Below are positions 1 to 56,324 of a DNA stretch of 64,000 nucleotides, one piece after another. Positions within the stretch are counted from its first letter, which is position 1, and every line of letters starts with the position of its first letter. The DNA is taken from NCBI GenBank assembly GCA_003233455.1, contig QILQ01000012.1, positions 4,441 through 68,440 on the forward strand, given 5' to 3'. The translations under genes were made by a program, and so were the position numbers. Below the pieces are notes generated by a model that did no database searches, had not been told where the DNA came from, and was given only the letters and a program-made list of their open reading frames with translations. Origin of the DNA: Candidatus Zambryskiibacteriota bacterium (GTDB lineage Bacteria; Patescibacteriota; Minisyncoccia; Phycocordibacterales; WO2-35-19).

Positions 1-210
1 TTTCGCCCCAGTGCCTCGGCAACAATCGCAGTTGTTCCGCTCCCCATAAATGGGTCAAAAACAATATCACCTTTATTACTTGCAGAAAGTAAGACTTGTT
101 GAATAAGTTTGAGTGGTTTTTGTGTGGGGTGTGCTTTCATTCCATTTTCATCTTTAAGTCTTTCTTTGCCCTTGCAAAGCCCAAAAATCCAATCTGTGTC
201 TTTCATTTGC
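1..210 (-). CDS. C-terminal module of beta-class N4/N6 DNA methyltransferase (AdoMet-binding motif I region), partial at window edge; separate ORF that re-starts at a duplicated junction motif
   Basis: Minus-strand ATG at 210 preceded by in-frame stop; translation MKDTDWIFGLCKGKERLKDENGMKAHPTQKPLKLIQQVLLSASNKGDIVFDPFMGSGTTAIVAEALGRK = HPTQKP + FxGSGTT motifs of CcrM/HinfI-type MTases; runs off window. Confidence 0.6.
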
Positions 211-13136: not shown

Positions 13137-13390
13137 AAATATTTTGGACGAATGAATTTAATAAAAATTTAAAACTTCTCCCAACTAAAACAAGAAGGCT
13201 CTACAAAAAACAGGAAAATATCTTTTTTGTAAACTGGAAAGATCCTCGCCTCCACACAAAAAAACTAAAAGGAGTTAATCAGATTTTTTCTTTTAGAATT
13301 ACAAGAAAATATAGAGTTTTATTTAAAATTACAGATAAATCCTCAATTTTGTTTGTTTCAATAGGTCACAGAAAAAATATTTATGACTAA
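13133..13390 (+). CDS. RelE/ParE(YafQ)-family toxin
   Basis: 85 aa, ...FSFRITRKYRVLFKITDKSSILFVSIGHRKNIY. Confidence 0.6.
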   Translation: MKIFWTNEFNKNLKLLPTKTRRLYKKQENIFFVNWKDPRLHTKKLKGVNQIFSFRITRKYRVLFKITDKSSILFVSIGHRKNIYD

Positions 13391-14324
13391 ATTTCAACCA
13401 AAAAAATCATTGGGGCAACATTTTTTGAGAGATTCAAAAATACTCAAGAGAATTGTTGATTTTGCCGAGATTAAAAAAACAGATATTATGGTAGAAGTGG
13501 GACCTGGAGAAGGAGGACTTACTAAATTACTTCTTGAACAAGCGAAAAAAGTGATAGCGGTTGAAAAAGATGAAGAGATGGTAATTTTTTTGAAAGGCAA
13601 ATTTAAAAAAGAAATCAAAGAAGGAAAATTAGAAATTGTTGAAGGAGATATTTTAGATTTTTATTCGCAAAATATTTTCTCGCCACTTGCGGACTCAAAC
13701 TATTTTGCCACCAACTATAAATTAGTTGGCAATATCCCATATTACATAACTGGAGCTTTGTTTAAAAAAGCTTTAGAAGCTTCAAATTTTCCAAAATCAA
13801 TAACTTTTGTAGTCCAAAAAGAGGTAGCACAAAGAATTATGGCTCAAAGATGCCTGCCTGCCGGTGGGCAGGGAAAAGAAAGTATTTTGAGTATTTCCAT
13901 AAAAGTTTATGGCAAGCCGAAATATGGGGGAGTTATAAAAGCGGGCAGTTTTTATCCAAAACCAAAAGTTGATTCGGCTATTTTATCAGTAAGAGGTATT
14001 TCAAAAGAAAAATTTCAAAGGACTGACCTTAAAAAAAATCCCAAAGGTCAGTCCTTGGGAAAAGAAAATTTTTCTTTTGGGGAAATACTTGAGCAGAATT
14101 TCTTTAAAATATTAAAAATAGGATTTTCTCATAAAAGAAAGTTGCTTATTAAAAATTTGGAGAACCTGTCAAGGGTCGCCTTTTTGGGGCAACTTTCAAA
14201 GGCGACCCTTGACACTTCAAATCTAAAAGAAATTTTTGAAAAATGTGGAATTTCAGATAAAGCCAGAGCAGAAGATTTAAAAGTTGAAGATTGGATTTGC
14301 TTGAGCAAAAAGTTTTCACCATAA
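13383..14324 (+). CDS. rsmA: 16S rRNA (adenine1518/1519-N6) dimethyltransferase RsmA/KsgA, with in-frame palindromic insertions
   Basis: LGQHFLRDSKILKRIV...VEVGPGEGGLT...FYPKPKVDSAIL...FSHKRKLLIKNL; longer than usual owing to inserted segments. Confidence 0.85.
   Translation: MTKFQPKKSLGQHFLRDSKILKRIVDFAEIKKTDIMVEVGPGEGGLTKLLLEQAKKVIAVEKDEEMVIFLKGKFKKEIKEGKLEIVEGDILDFYSQNIFSPLADSNYFATNYKLVGNIPYYITGALFKKALEASNFPKSITFVVQKEVAQRIMAQRCLPAGGQGKESILSISIKVYGKPKYGGVIKAGSFYPKPKVDSAILSVRGISKEKFQRTDLKKNPKGQSLGKENFSFGEILEQNFFKILKIGFSHKRKLLIKNLENLSRVAFLGQLSKATLDTSNLKEIFEKCGISDKARAEDLKVEDWICLSKKFSP
14018..14056. repeat. Perfect 13-bp inverted repeat (AAGGACTGACCTT/AAGGTCAGTCCTT) inside rsmA coding sequence
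   Basis: Direct reading; encodes RTDLKKNPKGQSLG within the ORF. Confidence 0.7.
14167..14214. repeat. Perfect 17-bp inverted repeat (TGTCAAGGGTCGCCTTT/AAAGGCGACCCTTGACA) inside rsmA coding sequence
   Basis: Direct reading; encodes SRVAFLGQLSKATLDTS inserted between conserved KRKLLIKNLENL and NLKEIFEKCGI. Confidence 0.75.
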
Positions 14325-46364: not shown

Positions 46365-46415
46365 CCTCACCCCTCACTCCGTGTAGCCCTCTCCTTAATA
46401 AGGAGAGAGGGGAGA
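46365..46415. repeat. GC-rich palindromic repeat element (CCTCACCCCTCACTCC + CCCTCTCCTTAataAGGAGAGAGGGG)
   Basis: Inverted orientation relative to 23673 copy; intergenic. Confidence 0.6.
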
Positions 46416-46488
46416 AACCAAAGGGAACCCTTAAAGAATTAAAGAAATGCCCCAAAAGGTCCCCCTTGGTTTTGTGTAGTATGAAAGC

Positions 46489-53935: not shown

Positions 53936-54853
53936 ATCAACAATCAGACCTTTTTCATCGTGGAGGTCTATTTTATCATGTCTTGTTCGCCAAAGCGGTC
54001 CAAATTTATTTAAATAAATACGATATTCATTACCCGGAAAATCGGTATCACCAAGATGTTTGGCTATACAAGTATTATAATTTATTTGGGTAGTGATATA
54101 GGTTTTGCAAGCTGAGGAAACAGTATCAGGTAAGTCCCTTATAAATTCATTATCTCTGGTAACGCATCGCGGTATTCTTTCTATAATATTCAAACATTCA
54201 TCATTCCTATCATAAACGTTGGAAAATCTTGGTAAATTTTCGTCTTTTGACAGAGGACATTGTAAAGACAAACTTGGATAAAATGTCCTATTTTCTTCAA
54301 AATAACCGGTACATTTATTTGTTCGGAAAGATATACCTATAGGAGAAAAACCTTTAATTAAATAAACCCTATCTCCTTGTTGAAGGACTACATTACTTTC
54401 TGTTTTGGCAAAAGGAAATGGCAATAAAGCTGCTTGACCGATGATAGTATAATATCCGGTAACTTCACTCTTTAAATACCAGTCGGTTATTTTTAGAGTC
54501 TCATTTTTTTTGAGATTGGTAGAAAGAGAAAGATATTCTTCATTAGGATTATCTTGATAAAGTCCGGATATGTTTGACATTCTAATTTTATCGTAATAAG
54601 GAGAACGTTTGCTTCGTTTTATTTTTTTATCTAAACTTTGTTCTAATTTTTTGATGTCTTTTTTTGCTTCTTTTATATTTGCCGCTACTTCTTTATTTGA
54701 TGAATAACCTAAATTTTTATTGTTTGTTCCGATTGAAGAAATATTTTTGGAGATGTTGTTCCTATTTGTCTTGGCTTTTTTGAGCGGACTGTAAGCAAGT
54801 CCTACAAGAATAAACAAAACTAATATTATAATCAATGGTTCCTTAATATTCAT
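53921..54853 (-). CDS. Hypothetical secreted protein
   Basis: Signal/anchor MNIKEPLIIILVLFILVGLAYS. Confidence 0.35.
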   Translation of the reverse strand: MNIKEPLIIILVLFILVGLAYSPLKKAKTNRNNISKNISSIGTNNKNLGYSSNKEVAANIKEAKKDIKKLEQSLDKKIKRSKRSPYYDKIRMSNISGLYQDNPNEEYLSLSTNLKKNETLKITDWYLKSEVTGYYTIIGQAALLPFPFAKTESNVVLQQGDRVYLIKGFSPIGISFRTNKCTGYFEENRTFYPSLSLQCPLSKDENLPRFSNVYDRNDECLNIIERIPRCVTRDNEFIRDLPDTVSSACKTYITTQINYNTCIAKHLGDTDFPGNEYRIYLNKFGPLWRTRHDKIDLHDEKGLIVDSISY

Positions 54854-55769
54854 ATTTTATCTGGTGTTTGGAGCAAAAGTGAGCGCTTCTGCCCCTAATT
54901 ACTATTCTTTCTATTATACCCGAACAATTCCTTTTTGAACATTTTTGTCCTTTTTTACCGTAAACTTTATGAAAATTCTGAAAACCGCCTTTTTCACCAA
55001 AAACATTTCTATAATCCGATTTGGAATCGCCTCCATATTTAATTGAGAGTTTTAAAATTTTTTGCATTGCTTTAAAAATTTCCGCAAATTTCTCTTTCGG
55101 AATTTTATCGGCGAATGATAAGGGGTGAATGTCGGTTTGCCAAAGAATTTCGTCTGAATAAATGTTGCCAATACCGGCAATGGCTTTTTGGTCAAGTAAG
55201 GCGGATTTTATAGGGGTTCTCTTTTTCTTGCACATTATCTCAAAAAGTTTCTTGGCATTGAATTTCGGGTCAAGAGGGTCCGACCCGAGTTTTGATAAAG
55301 TTTTGTGTTGATGAAGTTTGGTTGTTTCAAAAATAGTAACAGAAGCAAATTTTCTCATATCAGAAAGCACTAAATGTTTATTATTTGATAAAGAAAAAAC
55401 TAGATGTATAAATTGATTGTATGAATCTTGAAGAGGTCCTTTTTTGTAATCACCAACCATTAAGTGTCCTGTCATTTTCATATGGATTATAATGGTGTAT
55501 AAAATCAAGGTTAAACCTTGGAGATTTTCAAGGTTTAACCTTGATTTTATGTGAATTAAAATATTTTTTCCTTTTTTTTCAATAGAAATAATTTTTGCTC
55601 CTACTACAATTTGTTTGAAATAATCAAAATACTTTTTATTTTTTATAGTCTGACTATTTCCGCAAGCGGTATTAACATAAAAATCAGACCAGACATCTTT
55701 AATAGTTTGTCCGATAATAGTCTTTTTTAATCCTTCAACTGTTGTATATACTTCTGGTAGTTCGGGCAT
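54843..55769 (-). CDS. mutM: Formamidopyrimidine-DNA glycosylase (Fpg/Nei family) with in-frame palindromic insertion
   Basis: MPELPEV N-terminus, C-terminal zinc finger C..C...C..C; insert KSRLNLENLQGLTLILYTII before HMKMTGHL. Confidence 0.75.
   Translation of the reverse strand: MPELPEVYTTVEGLKKTIIGQTIKDVWSDFYVNTACGNSQTIKNKKYFDYFKQIVVGAKIISIEKKGKNILIHIKSRLNLENLQGLTLILYTIIIHMKMTGHLMVGDYKKGPLQDSYNQFIHLVFSLSNNKHLVLSDMRKFASVTIFETTKLHQHKTLSKLGSDPLDPKFNAKKLFEIMCKKKRTPIKSALLDQKAIAGIGNIYSDEILWQTDIHPLSFADKIPKEKFAEIFKAMQKILKLSIKYGGDSKSDYRNVFGEKGGFQNFHKVYGKKGQKCSKRNCSGIIERIVIRGRSAHFCSKHQIKYEY
55498..55550. repeat. AT-rich perfect inverted repeat (23-bp arms) inserted in frame in mutM
   Basis: TATAAAATCAAGGTTAAACCTTG-gagatttt-CAAGGTTTAACCTTGATTTTAT. 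Confidence 0.75.
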
Positions 55770-55827: not shown

Positions 55828-56109
55828 TTACAATCCTAATCTTTTTTTGGCAATTTCATAAACTTCTTTTCGGTGACCCATAACTTGGATTCTCACTTCT
55901 TTTCCAATAATTTCATAAATAATTCTGTAATCCCCAATTCTCAACCTCCAATATCCTCTAAGATTAGAACGTAGTGGTATACCGTAAATTTCTGGATGAA
56001 ATGATAGTTTTTTGTAACCTTTTAATAAAAGTTTTTTGGATATAGTTCCTAATCTTGGTAGGTCAATGTGCAGAACTTTTGGGTGATAATTTATTTGATA
56101 TGTTTCCAT
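55828..56109 (-). CDS. RelE/ParE-family toxin
   Basis: ...LRGYWRLRIGDYRIIYEIIGKEVRIQVMGHRKEVY. Confidence 0.6.
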   Translation of the reverse strand: METYQINYHPKVLHIDLPRLGTISKKLLLKGYKKLSFHPEIYGIPLRSNLRGYWRLRIGDYRIIYEIIGKEVRIQVMGHRKEVYEIAKKRLGL

Positions 56110-56324
56110 ACTTCTTCATGGGGGATATATTTCACATTCTTTTCTTTAGATCTTTTGTCTGCTATCTCAGCCCAAACAAGATCTTCCTCAAATTCTAAAG
56201 CTTGCTTCACCAACTCCCTAACTTTAGCTGATGTGGGCATGTGATCTCTTTTGGCAAGTTGCTTGATAGCCCAACCTGTGTCTTTATCAACAGTTATGTT
56301 TATTCTTTGTTTTGTGGTGGGCAT
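56091..56324 (-). CDS. Ribbon-helix-helix-type antitoxin partner
   Basis: 77 aa, overlaps toxin start. Confidence 0.4.
   Translation of the reverse strand: MPTTKQRINITVDKDTGWAIKQLAKRDHMPTSAKVRELVKQALEFEEDLVWAEIADKRSKEKNVKYIPHEEVWKHIK

Follow-up and report, generated by a model that had tools for sequence, protein, structure and literature searches.

A perfect palindrome in frame within fpg points to a dispersed family of coding palindromes in Patescibacteria

The fpg (mutM) gene in the window, the whole 64,000-nucleotide stretch of DNA analyzed here, carries a perfect palindrome in its reading frame, and sequence comparison places this hairpin as one copy of a multi-copy palindrome family nearly confined to Patescibacteria. 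The account that we favor, and regard as reasonably probable, is that near-perfect DNA palindromes of about 36–55 bp behave as selfish, non-autonomous REP/MITE/RPE-like elements that are tolerated in frame in permissive loops. The family is apparently undescribed until now, and our search of the literature on CPR, Patescibacteria, Parcubacteria and Saccharibacteria in combination with palindromic, in-frame or MITE elements found nothing relevant.

The palindrome consists of two 22-nt arms (55,499–55,520 and 55,529–55,550) that are 100% complementary and separated by 8 nt, for a total of 52 bp spanning codons I74 to L90 and reaching one base into Y91 (Table 1). The initial annotation had described a perfect inverted repeat with 23-bp arms; the repeat is real and perfect, but its arms measure 22 bp, since T55498 and G55551 do not form a Watson–Crick pair. 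Amongst the close inverted repeats of the window it is the longest, and 100 shuffled versions of the window, serving as a chance control, contained zero 22-mer matches at up to 3 mismatches. The palindrome translates to IKSRLNLENLQGLTLIL directly ahead of YTIIIHMKMTG, so that the ORF translation agrees with the earlier observation of a repeat in fpg coding for a peptide before the conserved HMKMTG segment; the predicted tryptic peptide of the hairpin segment is LNLENLQGLTLILYTIIIHMK.

Table 1 Coordinates of the fpg palindrome, its parts, its host gene and the further candidate family copies in the window.
Feature	Position	Strand	Details
Full perfect palindrome	55499..55550	-	22-bp arms and 8-nt loop (55521-55528); codes I74-L90
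Net insertion (family core), 39 bp, 13 codons S76-L88	55506..55544	-	Sense T-CAAGGTTAAACCTTG-AAAATCTC-CAAGGTTTAACCTTG; gap versus empty-site P0009, P0024
Outer 3' stem extension	55499..55505	-	Sense ATTTTAT; codons I89, L90 and base 1 of Y91; native fpg sequence in relatives
Outer 5' stem extension	55545..55550	-	Sense ATAAAA (with T of next codon, ATAAAAT); codons I74, K75
fpg/mutM gene, host of palindrome	54843..55769	-	ORF, 308 aa; Pfam, PDB, Foldseek
Second copy, in frame in ksgA/rsmA	14013..14061	+	KFQRTDLKKNPKGQSLGKE; 61.0 bits with leave-out model R2
Third copy, reverse orientation, in frame in ksgA	14167..14214	-	LSRVAFLGQLSKATLDT; 17-bp perfect arms; 37.4 bits with R2
Degenerate intergenic copy, possible member (weak)	46410..46477	+	15.9 bits, E ~0.01 with R2

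The host ORF is recognizable as Fpg/MutM from both its sequence and its predicted structure: it contains the Pfam domains Fapy_DNA_glyco (PF01149), H2TH (PF06831) and zf-FPG (PF06827), matches PDB MutM/Fpg entries at 1e-32, and yields an AlphaFold model that aligns with MutM structures at a TM score of 0.86 (Foldseek). Every residue that is invariant across 43 orthologs is retained. The model (mean pLDDT 85.5; 67 over residues 81–90) predicts strands at residues 69–78 and 87–96 joined by a turn at 79–86, placing the insertion site at the turn of a β-hairpin in the N-terminal β-sandwich. To locate the insert we relied on the AlphaFold model together with the alignment of orthologs; a phmmer alignment to L. 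lactis Fpg was misregistered around the insert and was therefore left out of its placement. Going by the open frame, the palindrome is probably translated as extra residues and not removed, and it is presumably neutral for Fpg, the model and the retained invariant residues speaking for tolerance.

We determined how the insertion site is occupied in other Fpg proteins (283 to 360 aa), a comparison that had been proposed as a check on the claim of an in-frame insertion. The claim stood: 28 of the 42 aligned orthologs have a short 3-residue turn (GKNILINL-NND-YTIIVHMKMTG), and DNA alignment against two empty-site orthologs, P0009 and P0024, opens a single clean 39-nt gap at 55,506–55,544, a net gain of 13 codons in the window copy. 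In a neighbor-joining tree without support values, the window protein pairs with P0002 (74% protein identity), followed by the empty-site P0009. This sister ortholog keeps the loop and 3' arm (HQGLTL) without the 15-nt 5' arm. Finding the same residues in orthologs lacking dyad symmetry had been named in advance as evidence against an insertion; P0002 alone shows this, and in part, and its half-element looks like what is left of the same insertion after decay, rather than like native sequence. By sequence, the slot was evidently also struck independently in a second clade: ortholog P0010, on contig L003 of another metagenome, has in the identical codon slot a full, GC-richer copy (stem TCGGA/TCCGA) which at 51 nt equals the window copy in length, while its clade is otherwise empty-site in the tree, again without support values. 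Comparison of filled and empty Fpg sites for a target-site duplication revealed neither repeated bases nor defined ends; the flanks are inverted, not direct (ATAAAA…ATTTTA in the window, AAGCC…GGCTT in P0010).

The family shares an architecture in which (C)AAGG-N5-CCTT is joined to AAGG-N5'-CCTT(G) by a loop that is first A-rich and then C-rich, with the (C)AAGG head present in all aligned copies. Within the window, three of four copies fall inside genes, both ksgA repeat segments are gapped against B. subtilis KsgA, and the weak candidate is located in the gap that separates a PilB/GspE-like ATPase gene from the next ORF. The initial annotation had assigned the fpg repeat to a family separate from the GC-rich elements, a division that we abandon: the fpg and ksgA copies have the same architecture, and a covariance model built from other genomes (R2, from which every window sequence and every TTAAA-stem copy had been excluded) scores the fpg palindrome at 63.3 bits and recovers both ksgA copies (Table 1). 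The GC-richer copy at the same codon slot of P0010 likewise opposes it.

Scanning GTDB genomes with the pattern AAGG-N5-CCTT..AAAA..AAGG-N5-CCTTG, we recovered 114 stretches, of which 72 had N5 complementary at 4–5 of 5 positions (the chance of 5/5 being ~1/1024). All but three of these 72 copies reside in MAGs labelled Patescibacteria or unclassified "bacterium", and the three exceptions are contigs from automatically labelled MAGs; the remaining non-CPR matches have non-complementary N5 and were set aside as chance matches. Roughly 35 matches of the first scan, from MAG JASGCE01, belong to a different, non-palindromic repeat and were excluded. Because the search patterns fixed AAGG and CCTT, and in the first scan also AAAA in the loop, the apparent family consensus is partly imposed. 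With two window copies included, the 74 copies fall into at least five frame/orientation classes, and 56 are in spans that run for 100 codons or more without a stop. A wider search for the arm sequence, as suggested at the outset, showed that over 120 metagenome contigs (a lower bound) have the identical arms AAGGTTAAACCTT/AAGGTTTAACCTT, with diverse loops and flanks; among the matches listed, 77 of 122 occupy long open frames, again stop-free over at least 100 codons. In 526 kb of CPR loci, another covariance model (R1) added about 40 copies, and a single gene sometimes contained 5–7. N5 was common to 33% of same-genome copy pairs compared to 4.8% of pairs between genomes. Presence/absence and copy number together suggest that the element is mobile.

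We next consider how the arms stay paired and how the stem may have grown. Many family loops are themselves palindromic, down to 0–1 unpaired bases, and outer stems of variable sequence add at least 4 extra pairs in 18 of 73 copies, compared to 1.4 expected. In the window, the 3' flank ATTTTA is the reverse complement of the gene's own 5' flank and differs from the corresponding GAAAAG of P0002 at 6/6 bases (AACAAA in the empty-site P0009), whereas the next 8 bases, TACACCAT, are the same as in P0002; the outer 5' extension comprises native-position codons common to P0002 (ATT AAA). In this one sister comparison, the outer 7 bp of the stem show the clustered flank change expected of a template switch, and they most likely overwrote fpg's own codons by this route. 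Quasipalindrome template switching is a documented mechanism (PMC7202029, PMC8794818, PMC8604942), and it can create hairpins (PMC8794818). That the window copy is perfect despite a decayed sister copy points to active homogenization or a recent second hit at the site. We propose that the 39-bp core entered the β-hairpin turn of Fpg without target-site duplication, leaving the frame open, and that the 13 added residues would lengthen the two strands and form a new turn, LNLENLQG. Arm complementarity would be upheld by a DNA-level process, most likely intrastrand template switching (quasipalindrome correction), and the same process would have copied the 5' flank, as its reverse complement, over 6–7 bases of fpg's own 3' flank, extending the stem from 15 to 22 bp.

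We consider it unlikely that the hairpin is under selection as a cis-acting structure, whether as intragenic RNA tuning fpg expression (an attenuator, an intrinsic terminator or an RNase III site) or as a DNA hairpin or cruciform bound by a host protein; the family would then be a domesticated regulatory or architectural motif and not selfish DNA. The predicted RNA of the 22-bp perfect duplex folds at −30.1 kcal/mol (shuffles −7.0 ± 2.4; z = −9.7). With its A-run and T-run, the stem is reminiscent of bidirectional terminators and of RNase III substrates and might therefore affect fpg expression, and a consensus scan marks terminator-like sites on both strands because ATTTTAT comes after the inner stem. 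An A-run and a T-run also border the intergenic copies L126, L164 and L169, in the manner of bidirectional terminators; a protein might recognize the conserved AAGG/CCTT blocks, and the window copy has stayed perfect while its sister decayed. An Rfam scan of the fpg region gave nothing above the gathering threshold, the top score being 30.9 bits against 80 for a generic miRNA hairpin model. Selection on RNA pairing is disfavored by the covariation, which is essentially Watson–Crick only (G-U in 2 of 365 N5 cells), and the stems are too short or the loops too small for RNase III or termination in most copies. Moreover, the copies are spread over unrelated genes, in either orientation and in several frames, with many in some genes, while the element is absent from most Fpg orthologs and half lost in the sister lineage. 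Unlike uptake or binding signals, lone arms show no excess in the window once the paired copies are set aside (6 single AAGG-N5-CCTT arms, 4 of them in elements; 1.5 expected), and the idea of an uptake signal was rejected on this ground.

It appears less probable still that selection acted on the protein, with an adaptive β-hairpin extension conferring a new Fpg interaction or property and the DNA palindrome being incidental. Consistent with such an extension, AlphaFold predicts an ordered lengthening of the existing β-hairpin, the family's dominant frame codes for the turn-prone peptide R-x-[DN]-L-K-N-P-Q-G-x-T-L, and many orthologs carry inserts in the same slot. However, these inserts include unrelated types (PSTSSGQV, TKDQIF) scattered across the tree, the nucleotide motif is kept regardless of frame and orientation, so that the encoded peptides, QGSTLGILKVEPW among them, are unrelated, and no peptide requires perfect 22/22 complementarity. 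We also looked for PSTSSGQ-type inserts in the 64-kb window and found none.

Two further explanations strike us as very improbable. The first is that the palindrome arose de novo within fpg, through fold-back synthesis or a local template switch, and is not a copy of a dispersed element; hairpins can arise by template switching (PMC8794818), and the outer 7 bp look templated. Yet identical 13-nt arms recur in more than 120 unrelated contigs (a lower bound), the whole architecture is found at about 70 genome loci, and the leave-out model scores the palindrome at 63.3 bits; de novo origin is contradicted for the 39-bp core and favored for the outer 7 bp only. The second, to which we give equally little credence, is that the element goes untranslated through ribosome bypass or removal from the mRNA. 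Hairpin-shaped gaps are bypassed by the ribosome in T4 gene 60 and in the mitochondrial byps of Magnusiomyces, and the size (39–52 nt) and hairpin shape of the fpg element resemble such gaps; however, the insert is a multiple of three with no in-frame stop, the host frame is open through most family copies, and the codons flanking the core are AAA and ATT, where take-off and landing codons would match. That the palindrome is an artefact of assembly or amplification, an inverted duplication formed as a chimera (palindromic chimeras are known from MDA and assembly), is scarcely credible given the homologous element in the same slot of the independent contig L003, the remnant in the sister ortholog, the preserved reading frame and the recording of the window Fpg protein from two contigs.

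We return to our preferred reading of tolerated selfish palindromes. Rickettsia is the only textbook case of selfish DNA lodged in frame within protein-coding genes; if our reading is true, far shorter near-perfect palindromes do likewise throughout the Patescibacteria, a vast radiation about which little is understood. Some of the unusual insertions and variable lengths of CPR proteins would then be accounted for, and the family would offer a natural system in which DNA hairpins are turned into protein hairpins, and a case of template switching visibly rewriting coding sequence. In practice, these elements interfere with gene calling, ortholog alignment and structure prediction for CPR genomes, and the family is now searchable by a simple pattern or covariance model. 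A broader proposal, which we put forward tentatively and hold to be possible but doubtful, is that self-perfecting coding palindromes across CPR spread without target duplication, repeatedly strike the same permissive loops, grow and stay perfect by templated synthesis and seed new β-hairpins or loops in membrane and housekeeping proteins; they might then be an important force, specific to this lineage, in the divergence of CPR proteins, and an ssDNA enzyme may move them.

Several known systems share features with these elements. Intrinsic (rho-independent) terminators, in which a G+C-rich stem leads straight into a U-tract where a transcription unit ends, and terminator-like repeats such as SPRITE likewise combine a hairpin with a following T-rich tract, here on both strands, and some intergenic copies look bidirectional in this manner, but the fpg copy sits mid-gene in an intact conserved gene, with an AT-rich stem whose T-tract is part of a longer stem. 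Quasipalindrome template switching (PMC7202029, PMC8794818, PMC8604942) resembles our case in that multinucleotide replacement makes an inverted repeat perfect or longer; it would account for stem upkeep and growth, but not for the source of the 39-bp core. The coding palindromes of Nematomorpha mitochondria (PMC6649704) are also perfect inverted repeats inside functional protein-coding genes, with both arms translated; those arms, up to 284 bp long, code for conserved native protein regions, whereas the fpg palindrome is an added segment, absent in most orthologs, of a dispersed family.

Amongst mobile palindromes, the direct target-site duplication of MITEs has no counterpart at the Fpg slot, where the flanks are inverted. 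REP elements are by definition extragenic, usually have a GTAG or CGTC head and are linked to a RAYT transposase (PMC12306157, PMC3733652). Like REP/RAYT and IS200-IS605-type hairpins, the family consists of short consensus palindromes in many copies, with no target-site duplication and with compensated stem variation. It departs from REPs in its (C)AAGG head and in its location, the majority of copies in both the genome and the listed arm matches falling in long stop-free spans. A close parallel in behavior is offered by the Rickettsia palindromic elements (RPEs; Ogata et al. 2000, via PMC10969869), about ten families of ~100–150 bp with a conserved peptide. The fpg element differs in being 39 bp long (52 bp with the extended stem) and near-perfect, in its AAGG-N5-CCTT arms and compensated center, in its use of several frames and in its Patescibacteria MAG hosts, and a sequence relationship to RPEs is not expected. 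Like them, it is an in-frame palindromic repeat absent from orthologs, and the family comprises multi-copy palindromes of a reduced-genome lineage that lie in frame in unrelated housekeeping genes, vary among orthologs and are translated, presumably so in Patescibacteria, as added segments compatible with the fold.

The palindrome in fpg consists of two 22-nt arms (55499-55520 and 55529-55550) that are 100% complementary and 8 nt apart. No other close inverted repeat in the window is as long. The initial annotation had assigned it 23-bp arms; because the 23rd pair is T/G, the arms are 22 bp. The inverted repeat itself was confirmed; a 22-mer search (up to 3 mismatches) returned the two arms only and nothing in 100 shuffles. 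Each arm contains the 15-nt near-palindrome CAAGGTT-A-AACCTTG, and the sense-strand RNA folds at −30.1 kcal/mol relative to −7.0 ± 2.4 in shuffles (z = −9.7). The host product matches the Pfam families Fapy_DNA_glyco, H2TH and zinc finger (zf-FPG, 17.8 bits, below the cut-off of 21.3) and MutM entries in the PDB (~1e-32), and its AlphaFold model (pLDDT 85.5) superposes on MutM-DNA complexes with a TM of 0.86. Running from codon I74 through L90 into the first base of Y91, the palindrome translates as IKSRLNLENLQGLTLIL directly N-terminal of YTIIIHMKMTG, in agreement with the earlier reading that placed it ahead of HMKMTGHL.

Several features of the locus were observed alongside. In this Fpg clade, the C-terminus carries invariant metal ligands C277-x4-C282 ... 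C299-x2-H302, compared with CxxC...CxxC in the classical Fpg zinc finger. Within fpg, TTAACC from the element's 3′ arm and a native TATAAT 17 nt downstream form a 10/12 sigma-70-like promoter match (12 such matches, 7.3 expected), perhaps a coincidence given the AT-rich DNA. A 93-aa ORF resembling RelE/ParE-type toxins by eye and a 77-aa partner form a small overlapping pair between fpg and the Mur-ligase gene; the pair is absent from the nearest relative's syntenic contig (L001), and a ParE_toxin gene lies just upstream of fpg on contig L118, which holds the ortholog P0009.

We next compared the site with orthologs. A search over 5.8 billion proteins yielded thousands of Fpg relatives, the best being 283-360 aa, from which we aligned 43 sequences (42 orthologs and the window's). 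In 28 of the 42, GKNILI(N/H)L-xx-x-(Y/H)T(I/V)..HMKMTG describes a 3-residue turn between two strands, where the window Fpg has 16 residues. Empty sites read CTA AAC / AAC AAA CAC in P0009 and CTA AAC / ACC GGC TAT in a second ortholog, P0024, and the filled site reads ATA AAA [39 nt] ATT TTA TAC. The gap relative to both is exactly 39 nt, or 13 codons, bearing out the in-frame insertion that had been proposed; the insert reads T-CAAGGTTAAACCTTG-AAAATCTC-CAAGGTTTAACCTTG, and DNA alignment of filled and empty sites revealed no direct repeat at the junctions. In the AlphaFold model, strands 69-78 and 87-96 and turn 79-86 form a lengthened beta-hairpin with a less confident tip (mean pLDDT 67, residues 81-90). 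Judging from the known MutM fold, we infer that this tip faces away from the DNA-binding side; in that fold, the opposite end of the second strand bears the intercalating Met of HMKM. Because the window Fpg keeps every residue invariant among orthologs, the gene with its insert looks functional.

Positions of the features discussed, with leave-out model scores in bits
Feature	Position	Strand	Description
ksgA/rsmA	13383-14324		313-aa rRNA dimethyltransferase; two in-frame family copies, opposite orientations
ksgA copy 1	14013-14061	+	TTTCAAAGGACTGACCTT-AAAAAAAATCCCA-AAGGTCAGTCCTTGGGAA; same plan as Fpg copy
ksgA match	14008-14066		61.0 bits
ksgA copy 2	14167-14214	−	in-frame palindrome
ksgA match	14161-14220	−	37.4 bits
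Intergenic hairpin with degenerate copy	46389-46477		downstream of PilB/GspE-like ATPase gene
Degenerate intergenic copy	46410-46477		15.9 bits
fpg/mutM ORF	54843-55769	−	308 aa; Fpg/MutM
Fpg C-terminal ligands	54843-54940		residues 277-302
Sigma-70-like match	55486-55514	−	inside fpg
Fpg element, sense	55499-55550	−	63.3 bits, E ~2e-19
Fpg element, antisense			45.4 bits
Inserted core	55506-55544	−	gap relative to P0009 and P0024
Toxin-like gene pair	55828-56324	−	between fpg and Mur-ligase gene
PSTxSGQ carriers (orthologs P0004, P0013, P0015, P0017, P0019, P0025, P0029, P0053)	Fpg protein alignment columns 85-101		DNA in locus L119

The element follows the plan (C)AAGG-N5-CCTT, an A-rich then C-rich loop, and AAGG-N5′-CCTT(G), where N5′ complements N5. 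Two further copies lie in ksgA, both in segments gapped relative to B. subtilis KsgA. We built a covariance model from 66 genome-scan copies, leaving out the window sequences, L003 (a locus holding another filled Fpg ortholog) and all TTAAA-stem copies. Because this model scores the Fpg and ksgA elements and the remaining window hairpins obtained no score, the AT-rich element in fpg and those called 'GC-rich' in ksgA form one family, rather than the separate families of the initial annotation. An intergenic small perfect hairpin, CTCTCCTTAATAAGGAGAG, sits beside the degenerate copy AACCAAAGGGAACCCTT...AAAGGTCCCCCTTGGTT. Single arms are not enriched within the window, and the unit is therefore the pair of arms.

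Scanning genomes, one per GTDB species, with AAGG-N5-CCTT-N0-1-AAAA-N5-9-AAGG-N5-CCTTG recovered 114 stretches, 72 of which had 4-5 of the 5 centre positions complementary. About 35 others are an unrelated, non-palindromic repeat that matched by chance in one MAG, JASGCE01 (Candidatus Paceibacterota MAG10), near-identical over 54 nt on ~35 contigs (L004, L006, L008, L011, L012 and ~30 more): CCAGACCCATTTAAGGCTTCGCCTTAAAAATCCAGCAAGGCTCCGCCTTGCATCC. A dozen in assorted phyla, with non-complementary centres, were also rejected as chance matches. Hosts of the 72 were nearly all labelled Paceibacterota, Saccharibacteria, Nomura-, Zambryski-, Moran-, Kaiser-, Lipton-, Lloyd-, Yanofsky- or Taylor-bacteria, 'Patescibacteria group' or unclassified 'bacterium'; 3 of the 72 lay in MAG contigs with automatically assigned non-CPR labels. 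The window's stem AAGGTTAAACCTT/AAGGTTTAACCTT recurs in three Patescibacteria contigs (L040, L042, L052).

Over 74 copies (the 72 and two from the window), the stop-free span reaches at least 100 codons around 56 and at least 200 around 48, and at least five frame/orientation classes are represented. The most frequent class reads x-R-[SFLT]-[DN]-L-K-N-[PSL]-[QKP]-[GR]-x-[TDN]-L, which the window's SRLNLENLQGLTL fits. Across 526 kb of family loci, a first covariance model detected ~40 additional copies. Copies are sometimes clustered, with several within the first 250 residues of a 1871-aa giant surface-type protein (L078 1224-6839) and five in two adjacent multi-pass membrane proteins (L092 1267-4918), read as RSDLK.., QGxTL.. 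and KGRT.. segments. Exact window arms with an 8-14-nt spacer occur on at least 120 metagenome contigs; among the matches listed, 77 of 122 copies lie in long open frames, and spacers are very diverse with recurrent sub-types, often palindromic themselves so that the duplex extends almost to the tip. Some intergenic copies have A-run and T-run flanks resembling bidirectional terminators. One sub-type (L025, L033, L038, L043, L045, L087, L109) has fixed flanks, GGGAA-AAGG...CCTTG-AGGAG, beyond which copy-specific complementary sequence continues; its AGGAG is Shine-Dalgarno-like, and several members lie in short ORFs or between genes.

N5 was identical in 33% of copy pairs within genomes and 4.8% between genomes, which fits amplification within genomes. 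The variable centre was Watson-Crick only (2 G-U cells of 365), a result partly imposed by pre-filtering copies at ≥4/5 Watson-Crick complementarity. Even so, G-U is not in excess among the residual mismatches. The pattern points to complementarity arising at the DNA level and not by selection on an RNA fold.

The outer stem of the Fpg copy has 8 extra pairs beyond the conserved block. Its 3′ flank, ATTTTA, differs at 6 of 6 bases from the GAAAAG of the sister ortholog P0002, differs from the AACAAA of P0009, and matches the 5′ flank of the window copy in reverse complement; immediately after it, TACACCAT is shared unchanged by the window and P0002. Replacement of a six-base block that lengthens a palindrome is the hallmark of intrastrand template switching (PMC7202029, PMC8794818, PMC8604942). 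The best explanation, from one sister comparison, is that template switching would have lengthened the stem, originally 15 bp, to 22 bp. It is also the best explanation for variable outer stems elsewhere: 18 of 73 copies have at least 4 extra outer pairs (1.4 expected), as do 48 of 122 window-arm copies among the matches listed, and the outer sequence is copy-specific.

In a neighbour-joining tree (277 ungapped columns, no support values), the sister of the window Fpg is P0002 (74% identity), followed by P0009. P0002 keeps the loop and 3′ arm (AAA AAT CAT CAA GGC TTG ACC TTG) and lacks the 15-nt 5′ arm, apparently a decayed remnant of the insertion. P0010, on L003 from another metagenome, has a full copy in the identical codon slot, where the H and Y codons are likewise 51 nt apart; its stem centre is TCGGA/TCCGA and its outer pairs are AAGCC/GGCTT. 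It falls in a different clade of that tree, in which the other members have empty sites, so the slot was struck at least twice or, alternatively, precisely vacated many times. An unrelated insert, (N/D/G)PSTxSGQ(V/A) (CCT TCG ACA AGC TCA GGG CAA GTA in P0019), fills this turn in seven or more scattered lineages, so the turn is a hot spot or the sole tolerated place. P0019 and P0039 carry this type at a second site too, and the next loop, after MVGKY, holds other G+C-rich, P/G/R-rich inserts of 10-45 residues; together these account for the range of Fpg lengths.

The explanation we favour as probable is a selfish, non-autonomous hairpin element that would insert into the permissive Fpg turn and be translated as an extension of the beta-hairpin, with templated DNA synthesis keeping its arms perfect. 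Given the hairpin nature and lack of target duplication, a putative 'peel and paste' single-strand enzyme of the IS200/IS605 or RAYT kind would fit as mobiliser. A selected regulatory or architectural hairpin is unlikely: a consensus scan flagged terminator-like sites on both strands, and RNase III could act on a perfect 22-bp duplex, yet Watson-Crick-only covariation, the varied hosts and orientations, and loss in relatives all speak against it. An adaptive module at the protein level is less plausible still. Local creation of the palindrome's core and translational bypass of the element are both very improbable, and an artefact is hardly credible.

No Rfam family matched the element, and our literature search found no paper on such elements in CPR bacteria, which is absence of evidence only because coverage was incomplete. 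Rickettsia palindromic elements are in-frame, translated and multi-copy in a reduced genome (PMC10969869); the window element works alike, in frame and in multiple copies, but departs from them in size and sequence. The family resembles REPs (PMC12306157, PMC3733652) in being short, with a consensus, copy number and no duplication, but is neither 'extragenic' nor headed by GTAG/CGTC. Because target-site duplication is absent, it is not a strict MITE. The nearest case of translated perfect inverted repeats is the coding palindromes of Nematomorpha (PMC6649704), which, unlike the Fpg element, cover native conserved sequence. Selfish palindromes inside genes are already known as a kind, of which the Fpg element is a variant; the large family it belongs to is seemingly undescribed and confined to Patescibacteria.
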